Shown one piece after another: positions 4,271-7,200 of a stretch of 60,490 bases of DNA. The notes under the pieces were generated by a model. It saw only the letters and a program-made list of their open reading frames with translations, had not been told where the DNA came from and did not search any database. Positions within the stretch are counted from its first letter, which is position 1, and each line of letters opens with the position of its first letter. The stretch is from Anaeromyces robustus (Eukaryota), in assembly GCA_002104895.1 (NCBI GenBank), contig MCFG01000403.1, positions 1-60,490 on the forward strand, given 5' to 3'. The translations under genes were made by a program, and so were the position numbers.

Positions 4271-7200
4271 TTAATTTAGAAATGAAAGTTTCATTATTTT
4301 TGGGTATCTAATATTTAAATGATTTCCTTCGTACGTTTTTTTACATTCTTTTTGTAATTTTTTATAAAGATAATAATAAAATAGTTTTCCTTCATAATGA
4401 AAAGTACAATCCCATTGACATTCTATATTGCAATTATTTAATAATGTATTATCAACAGAAAAAAAAAAAAAAGAAAACAAGAAAAAAGAAGTTAAGAATA
4501 ATAATAATAATTAATACGAAATATATTAAATTAATAAATTTCAACAATTATTTATATATAAAAATAGGATATCTTTCAAAAAATGTCATTAATGATGCTA
4601 CTATAGTTAGATTTTTATTTTTGCTAATATGCCAACATAATGATTCAATGATCATATTTTGAATTTTTTTTATGAATTTTATTAATTGTTCATAAAACTC
4701 ATAATCTTCATTAAAACTAATGGATTTAATATTACAGTTTGTATAATTAAAAAGCTCTATCCAATGTTGTATCAATTCTTTTATATCTTTCTCATTTATA
4801 ATTATATCATTGCTATTTGATGCATTATATTGATCATTTTTTTTTGCTTGTGATTCATAGTTAATACTAAAATTATTAGTGGATTTTGGTGATTCGATTC
4901 TCTGACTTATATTAATGAAGTTTAATTGATTATTATAATTATTATTGTTACTCTTATTAAATTGACTTGATGAAGGTAGACTATTTTTATTATTTAATTT
5001 ATTATTTACTAAAGTTTCATTTTGATTGTTATCTTTTATAATACTAATTAATTCTAGTGAATCGCGATTTTGATTATTATTATTATTATTATTATTATTA
5101 TTATTATTTTTATTGTTATTATTATTCCAAAATTGTGTTAAAGTTACTGGTTCTTTTTTCTTTTCATTTTTCTTGTGATATATTTGAAATAATTCTTCTT
5201 GAATATCAATTGGTAATTCATTCATAACATCCATATCAATCTATAATTATTTAAAATTAAAAAAAAATTATAATATATATATATTATAATTATTAGTTAT
5301 AATACTTTTTTATTATGACATTATTATTGATTATTATTTTCAATATTTATACCTTTGAAGGTGATGGTAATAATTTATCAATTGCATTCTCTTTATTATT
5401 AATAGTTTTTGTATTGTTATTATTTGTTATATTAGTAGTTTTCTTTTTTCTTCCTCTTTTCTTCTTTTCACCTATTTTATTTTGAATATCTTTTGATTGC
5501 TTATTTTGATTATTAGTAATTATACTATTAACTATATTATTATTATTATTATTATTATTATTATTATTATTATTATAATTTTGATTAATAGCATTGTTTA
5601 TGTTGTTATTAAATTGATAAAATTGAATGACTTCATCTTGAATTGATTTTGGTAAAGCGTTTAGTACTGATAGATCTATTTTATCTTTGGAAATATTCAT
5701 TAATTTATTTATATTATCCTTATCATTATTATTATTACTATTACTATTATTATTATTATTATTATTATTATTATTATTATTATTATTATTATTATTATTA
5801 TTATTATTATTATTATAATTATTATTATTATTTTTCGAAGTATTATCATTATTTAACAATGGGTTATTTTTAAGTTTTTTATTTTTATTTTCTTCCATAT
5901 TAAAGAATAATTTTTGTTGACTATCTATTAATATTAATATAACATAACATAATATAATATAATATTTTGTTAAAAAGATATATATTGTAAAATAATATCA
6001 TAATTATATTTTAAAATTAAAATTATAATAATTATAAATGTTTTTACCCGGAAGATCTGATAATTCTTTTAATTTCGATAATTGAATTCCTATTCCTCTA
6101 ATATCCTAATAGAAGATGTTTAGATAAAATATTATTTTTATAAATTCAATCATTTATAGAATATATATATAAATATAAATATAAATTAAGTTACTTTAGG
6201 ATTTAATTTTAGGTTATTAATAATTTCCCATGAAAGCTTTGCAATATCTTCTGATTTATAAATATACATATTTAAATTTCTGGATTTTGAAAGATTTCTA
6301 CAACTACCATGCCCAAGACGTTTTAAAGGTTTATCTGCATTTTCTTCTCTTATTTTTAATTTAATAGTTAATTTTTGACCTTTTTTATTTTCATTTTCCA
6401 TTCTTTTCGATACTTCCTTGGAAATTTCTTTAATGAACGCCTAGTAAAAAATATTTTTAATAATAAATAAATAAATAAATAAATAAATAAATAAATAAAT
6501 AAATAAATAAATAAATAAATAAATAAATAAATAAATAAATAAATAAATAAATAAATAAATAAATAAATAAATAAATAAATAAATAAATAAATAATAATAA
6601 TAATAATAATAATAATAATAATAATAATAATAATAATAATAATAATAATAATAATAATAATAATAATAATAATAATAATAATAATAATAATAATAATAAA
6701 AATAATAATAATAATAATAATAATAATAATAATAATAATAATAATAATAATAATAATAATAATAATAATAATAATAATAATAATAATAATAATAATAATA
6801 ATAATAATAATAATAATAATAATAATAATAATAATAATAATAATAATAATAATAATAATAATAATAATAATAATAATAATAATAATAATAATAATAATAA
6901 TAATATTTTTATTATAATTATTATAATTATAATAATCTATAAATATATATATTTTACTTTGAATTGGTCATTATTTGAAAACCGAATACCCCATGTTATT
7001 TCTGCTGAAATTGATCTTCTTTCACTATTTTCACTATTTAATTCTCTATTATCGATTCCTCTATAAAAACAAAAAAGTTATTATATTTTTTTAATATTAA
7101 ATTAAAAGTTTTAATTAATTAGAAATATTAGTTATAATAATATTTATATAAATAATGATCAAGATAATATTTATAATCTATTTTTAAATTTATATTATAT

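Follow-up and report, generated by a model that had tools for sequence, protein, structure and literature searches.

Minor (U12-type) introns are best characterized in animals and plants, where the distance from branch point to acceptor has an optimum of 11-13 nt and a pyrimidine tract is typically absent (PMC3584512), and where accepted human and mouse representatives in USP21, IPO5 and Setd1a carry ATATCCTA donors, with A at position +8 (PMC6717393). For the fungal class Neocallimastigomycetes, Larue and Roy 2023 described minor introns together with the corresponding snRNAs in P. finnis and N. californiae (PMC10639083). Subsequently, Olthof et al. 2024 counted 129 minor, 264 minor-like and 1711 hybrid introns in Neocallimastix californiae, for which snRNA genes for U11, U12 and two for U6atac are tabulated and no high-confidence U4atac, and raised hybrid spliceosomes as a possibility (PMC11347168). 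The traits which characterize the 'minor-like' class comprise AG at the exon end, a pyrimidine tract and a branch motif devoid of CC, and such introns may make use of major factors (PMC11347168).

The window analyzed here, i.e. the whole 60,490-nt stretch of contig MCFG01000403.1 from the gut fungus Anaeromyces robustus, has a GC content of 9-20% and harbors a REV1 gene on its minus strand (4271..10755), for which a model of 23 exons and 1194 amino acids was derived, the upstream boundaries being modelled from sequence alone. In this model, which is the best of eight open solutions, the first 21 of the 22 introns are of the GT-AG type and the last, located at 4446..4572 on the minus strand, is an AT-AC intron of 127 nt in phase 2, as supported by enumeration of junctions, by the gene model and by transcript contigs of two public runs, X2 and X5. 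With a probability of roughly 0.73, we regard it as a genuine AT-AC last intron of REV1, whose removal completes the C-terminal domain, likely by means of U12 splicing and likely in a routine, unregulated manner.

The identity of the gene is apparent from the order of its Pfam domains, BRCT, IMS, IMS_HHH, IMS_C and UBM (some of them below the curated cut-off), which present the REV1-defining combination of BRCT, Y-family core and UBM. Over 438 aligned residues the model is 77% identical to P0003, the REV1 protein of Piromyces finnis, and the best matches of the catalytic exon are Neocallimastix and Piromyces REV1 (75-77% identity). The penultimate exon (4573..5240, minus strand) encodes a second UBM-like motif, a low-complexity linker and the predicted helices 1-3 of the C-terminal domain, followed by the last coding exon (4271..4445, minus strand) with the predicted end of helix 3, a loop, helix 4 and the tail, amounting to 57 codons past the split codon, which is codon 1137 of the 1194-codon model. 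Residues 913-984 of the P. finnis protein correspond to 4787-4572 and residues 985-1031 to 4444-4304, leaving no protein gap at the junction, and the last exon is 79% identical to the final 47 amino acids of P0003. Predictors restricted to GT-AG junctions might, as a preliminary description of this DNA supposed, truncate the gene; among related public REV1 models, P0003, the only one reaching this region, is already joined across the junction, and P0001 and P0002 end hundreds of residues earlier. Elsewhere in the gene, intron 18 (6441-6957, minus strand, 517 nt) consists almost entirely of (ATT)n and (ATTT)n microsatellite, and neighboring genes on the plus strand encode a Sad1/UNC domain (501-1457) and a cyclic nucleotide phosphodiesterase domain (16433-18307).

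The 5' splice site of the last intron, ATATCCTAT (4564..4572, minus strand), was read from the sequence and shows a single mismatch to ATATCCTTT, at position +8; as ATATCCTA it matches the U12 pattern RTATCCT(T). A U12-like branch motif, TTCTTAAC, lies at 4491..4498 (minus strand) and resembles the TTCCTTAAC consensus with one C in place of two, a resemblance judged without a matrix score. Its presumed branch A at 4492, for which a role as branch point appears plausible, lies 46 nt from the intron 3' end. Between this motif and the acceptor runs a pyrimidine tract (approximately 4457..4490, minus strand), and pyrimidines make up 85% of the 40 nt preceding the acceptor versus 42-68% in 11 GT-AG introns of REV1. 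The acceptor (4446..4447, minus strand), with which the intron ends in TAATAC, is the first AC past the branch motif; AG is absent from the whole 127-nt intron, AC occurs only twice, inside the branch motif and at the acceptor, and the upstream exon terminates in GAAAG at 4573. The termini belong to the pairs permitted for U12 introns (AT-AC or GT-AG), but the branch close to the 3' end (11-13 nt) and the lack of a pyrimidine tract, which are typical and not absolute traits of such introns, are not found here. The coordinates and motifs given in the preliminary description (donor with one mismatch, branch motif, tract and AC) were exact on re-reading of the sequence, as was the match in phase to the downstream exon. 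The donor heptamer alone occurs at chance level (17 in the window versus 14.2 expected), while donor and branch motif within 300 nt of each other occur twice, versus an expectation of 0.15 and at most 1 in any of 60 simulations; estimated post hoc, the chance of finding the three signals together at a single fixed position is about 2e-8.

Around the junction 70 donor/acceptor pairs were enumerated. The preliminary description had noted the absence of an in-frame GT-AG alternative nearby; in-frame GT/GC-AG pairs do exist, although only via the weak donors 4717 or 4624 (52-145 nt upstream), and these would delete coding sequence up to 4572 that aligns with P. finnis. An AT-AG junction with the acceptor at 4423 is out of frame, and the AC acceptors 4491 and 4404 are in frame, yet contradict the contigs and P0003. 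U2-type AT-AC introns possess a major-type, ATRAGT-like donor core behind the AT. This type was likewise rejected, as the donor here reads ATATCC, in contrast to the GTA(A/T) followed by most of the remaining 21 donors.

Evidence for removal of the intron stems from public sequencing runs, eight of the 24 listed having been aligned to the locus (X1, X2, X4, X5, X7, X8, X16 and X17). In two of these eight, contigs of low depth skip the intron exactly and free of mismatches: one contig of X2 (RNA on record, study P2, depth 7.6) covers 4390-4443 and resumes at 4571, with 54 and 313 letters on the two sides, and one contig of X5 (RNA guessed, study P4, depth 2.2) does so with 54 and 97 letters. 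The skip equals 4446-4572 once the ambiguity of a 2-nt AT repeat is allowed for, and within this ambiguity a GT-AG reading is impossible. The junction was taken from per-piece contig alignments; it is missing from the joint table, which leaves out rows falling on the masked repeat. Thus, the exons are joined in RNA from 4573 to 4445 as the preliminary description had anticipated, and the AT-AC intron at 4446-4572 is real and constitutes the last intron of REV1. Among the remaining runs, a contig of X16 carries a loose end of 14 letters matching the downstream exon, which is under the 31-letter bar, X1 yielded contigs on either side of the junction and none bridging it, X7 covered both flanks and not the junction, X17 contributed four raw reads at ≥99% identity with none at the junction, and X4 and X8 gave no alignment at the locus. 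A deep pile at 4926-4960 was discarded as an unrelated short match. Both bridging contigs, from two studies, stop at exactly 4390, which could reflect a shared library, a graph branch or chance, and they may be non-independent. Slippage or error likely accounts for two extra bases at 4836 in an X1 contig (depth 8), next to a homopolymer run of the penultimate exon, as well as for a single extra base at 4357 in an X7 contig (depth 3).

Traces of the intron were also sought in other REV1 sequences. Two metagenome scans for orthologous DNA, in which the last exon served as query, yielded 384 and 238 pattern matches, not one of which was confirmed. Likewise, Tyr-Pro after helix 3, the signature of an unspliced U12 donor, was found in none of the 30 REV1 proteins, out of 122, which are devoid of a full domain match. 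The plant REV1 model P0085 terminates precisely on the Arg counterpart of the split codon, in the manner of read-through into a phase-2 GT intron, and may provide a single hint of an old intron position.

With respect to the machinery involved, removal of the intron by the minor spliceosome appears likely. From +3 to +7 its donor retains ATCCT, which sets it apart from each of the 21 GT donors of REV1, none of which (0/21) features CC at +5/+6, and phase 2 is in keeping with the reported tendency of minor introns to avoid phase 0. An Rfam scan of the 60,490-nt window for minor snRNAs found none. The designation as a minor-spliceosome intron in the preliminary description is upheld in part: the AT-AC termini, the U12-like donor and the occurrence of U11, U12 and U6atac in relatives speak in its favor, while the branch distance, the tract and the exon-end AG are atypical. 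In the presumed course of the reaction, U11 and U6atac would read ATATCCT at the donor, U12 would pair with TTCTTAAC, and the acceptor would be the first AC past the branch because the 46 nt between them hold neither AG nor AC.

The alternative that fares best, though unlikely, is a real intron of the 'minor-like' or hybrid kind, which would have kept its ancestral AT-AC termini and be removed by major or mixed machinery by means of the exon-end AG, the tract and the distant branch. It draws on the branch A situated 46 nt off the acceptor, on the 85% pyrimidine tract, and on N. californiae, for which the accessible tables hold no high-confidence U4atac and hybrid spliceosomes have been raised (PMC11347168). 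On the other hand, the ATCCT at +3 to +7 of the donor departs from all 21 GT donors, CTRAY motifs are located 29-67 nt upstream of the acceptor in four of 11 major introns of REV1, and a second AT-AC candidate in the window, whose donor matches ATATCCTTT perfectly, carries an identical TTCTTAAC at a distance of 34 nt from the acceptor that it probably uses. Accordingly, the long branch spacing may simply be what is normal in this AT-rich genome, and removal by the minor spliceosome remains the preferred reading.

The second candidate (21469-21603, plus strand) resides in a TSNAXIP1-like gene (Pfam TSNAXIP1_N, E 3.9e-6), where read-through of the donor leads to an immediate TAA and the branch motif is located at 21563-21570. 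Its acceptor is uncertain, as AC 21592 is out of frame and both AC 21603 and AG 21618 are in frame; TSNAXIP1 is absent from the human/mouse minor-intron list in its accessible form (PMC6717393). Further U12-like branch motifs, with no ATATCCT donor within 300 nt upstream, occur at 20045 (plus), 40216 (plus), 48195 (minus), 32271 (minus) and 19070 (minus), the one at 40216 being inside an apparent GT-AG intron. Such donor-less motifs are probably due to chance, the window containing seven U12-like branch motifs versus 5.8 expected.

Splicing of the intron bears directly on the C-terminal domain of REV1. Pfam REV1_C (PF16727) matches neither the exon pieces nor P0003, querying PDB sequences with the piece from the penultimate exon returned nothing for the C-terminal domain (best E 0.21), a homologue search with P0003 905-1031 recovered only P0003 itself among 88 candidates, and a protein atlas search gave no match for the domain. 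The miss by Pfam is likely caused by three insertions of about 8-12 residues, by which the gut fungus and P. finnis jointly differ from other REV1 proteins. A REV1 C-terminal profile was built from 87 of 122 proteins, which were chosen by their precomputed PF16727 mark and each contributed their final 115 residues. With this profile hmmsearch scored the spliced form at 12.0 bits, the retained form at 7.5 and the last exon alone at 1.3, and none of 200 shuffles reached 12.0; a fungal profile of 38 sequences yielded a small gain only (8.7 bits spliced versus 7.2 retained, shuffle maximum 7.3). In profile-profile alignment by hhalign, the spliced pair spans the whole domain of the 87-sequence profile (probability 90%, E 1.6e-6, 91 columns; score 37.5 versus 16.8 for the best of 60 column shuffles), the retained form aligns over 19 columns in helix 1 only, and the last exon alone has no match (probability 0.6%). 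The fungal profile gave a probability of 79% over 85 columns for the spliced pair. At the level of profile-profile comparison, homology to REV1 C-terminal domains thus extends over the full length. The Pfam profile proposed for alignment in the preliminary description matches neither the exon pieces nor P0003, whereas the profile-profile alignment is indeed extended by the 4271-4445 peptide.

An AlphaFold2 model of P0003 (76 sequences) predicts four helices at 911-937, 941-968, 972-987 and 998-1021, with pLDDT values of 63-88 in 10-residue blocks and 52 in a loop block, and places the exon junction, 984|985, within the final turn of the third helix. According to this prediction, helix 4 is supplied by the last exon. 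In human REV1 the corresponding helices comprise 1165-1178, 1184-1199, 1203-1219 and 1224-1243, and Y1244 together with L1248 binds Rev7 as part of a Rev7-binding cage (PMC8468184). Mapped through the toad protein P0118, the junction would be equivalent to human 1215|1216 and the counterparts of Y1244 and L1248 would fall within the last exon, which by analogy likely supplies the Rev7-binding tail as well. In common with the domain described by PF16727, the gut-fungal segment is terminal after the UBMs, has four predicted helices and shares an aligned Trp in helix 1, a Leu opening helix 3 and Tyr/Leu in the tail. The claim that splicing completes the C-terminal domain is consequently borne out by the 91 versus 19 columns in hhalign, the continuity of P. 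finnis REV1 and the helices of P0003. The accompanying statement that retention removes the last helices is correct as to truncation at the in-frame TAA (4548..4550, minus strand), but has to be narrowed: helix 4 is the one helix lost entirely, together with the tail, and helix 3 would be deprived of its last turn. By analogy with the mammalian structure, spliced REV1 could act as the usual translesion scaffold because helix 4 and the Tyr/Leu Rev7-binding tail would be supplied.

Whether such splicing also serves as a switch is a separate matter. Slow or regulated minor splicing of the last intron could in principle yield a retained REV1 that keeps its core and ubiquitin-binding motifs with diminished recruitment of polymerase zeta, which we consider improbable. 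Only its position speaks for this idea, as retention of this last intron stops translation eight codons in, with a loss of 57 residues that by the mapping via P0118 would include the equivalents of the Rev7-binding human Y1244 and L1248. Transcripts with a stop inside their last intron may evade junction-dependent decay, and the retained form might accordingly persist. Conversely, both site-spanning contigs are spliced, and without helix 4 the domain would likely be unfolded instead of tuned. Any of the 21 upstream introns would, if retained, truncate the protein and do at least as much damage, and no publication on such a REV1 isoform was found by a literature search covering accessible text. 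Moreover, in Rhizophagus, the only fungus tested in the survey concerned, minor-intron retention was modestly higher rather than lower in proliferating cells, meaning that minor splicing was not more efficient there, and its authors oppose a general regulatory role. Zero depth in the intron bins of all eight runs is uninformative on retention, given that 4446-4521 is repeat-masked, depths are 2-8 and contigs lose rare forms. The elaborated version, in which an AT-AC intron with a distant branch gives rise to a stable retained mRNA and a REV1 devoid of its Rev7-binding tail, so that minor-spliceosome activity sets mutagenic translesion synthesis, is improbable as well. The notion that the intron 'controls' or 'gates' translesion synthesis is not supported, in view of the spliced contigs, the at least equally damaging upstream retention and the lack of a link to proliferation in Rhizophagus. 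Finally, that the gene ends at TAA 4550-4548 and the joined contigs derive from an allele or strain lacking the 127 nt in its DNA is very improbable: the junction evidence does consist of transcript contigs, that of X5 being of guessed RNA nature, but the skip has exact splice-motif ends and mismatch-free flanks, the downstream exon shares 79% identity with P. finnis, and the X2 RNA library is on record.

Routine removal of a genuine AT-AC intron hence remains the preferred reading, and its significance lies foremost in a corrected gene model, according to which REV1 of this fungus has a complete yet divergent C-terminal scaffold domain that is missed by Pfam. As minor introns and their snRNAs are already known in Neocallimastigomycetes, the REV1 case is an addition to a known class; it contributes an AT-AC intron with transcript support, where the publications consulted give the minor introns of this lineage as computational counts only, and a DNA-repair gene outside the human/mouse minor-intron list. 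In the accessible human/mouse tables (PMC6717393), REV1 had no match in eight files in which the control ERCC5 was found, and a literature search retrieved no published report of a REV1 AT-AC intron in the text accessible to it. The intron may nevertheless already be contained in the per-intron databases of the surveys, one supplement being a table by gene ids and thus invisible to a symbol search. Since the distant branch is seen in the second candidate too, it hints at a possible undercount of minor introns in these very AT-rich genomes whenever the search window is fixed. Much greater importance would ensue only if retention proved to be regulated.

Compared with the AT-AC U12 introns of animals and plants (PMC3584512, PMC6717393), the intron of REV1 shares the terminal dinucleotides, the donor and the branch core, but differs in its branch distance of 46 instead of 11-13 nt, in the presence of a tract, and in that REV1 is off the human/mouse list as far as accessible. 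With the 'minor-like' and 'hybrid' classes of Olthof et al. it has in common the exon-end AG, the tract, the branch motif without CC and the longer branch distance, while its strong minor-type donor and AT-AC ends set it apart in a comparison made without matrix scoring. With 46 nt to the 3' end, its branch A is outside the branch-profile window of -40 to -1 employed in that study (PMC11347168), by which the intron could be binned as minor-like or hybrid. The closest resemblance is to the U12 introns described from Neocallimastigomycetes (PMC10639083, PMC11347168), with which it shares, within the same fungal class and as far as the accessible descriptions extend, AT-AC termini, an ATATCCT donor, a CTTAAC branch motif and phase 2.
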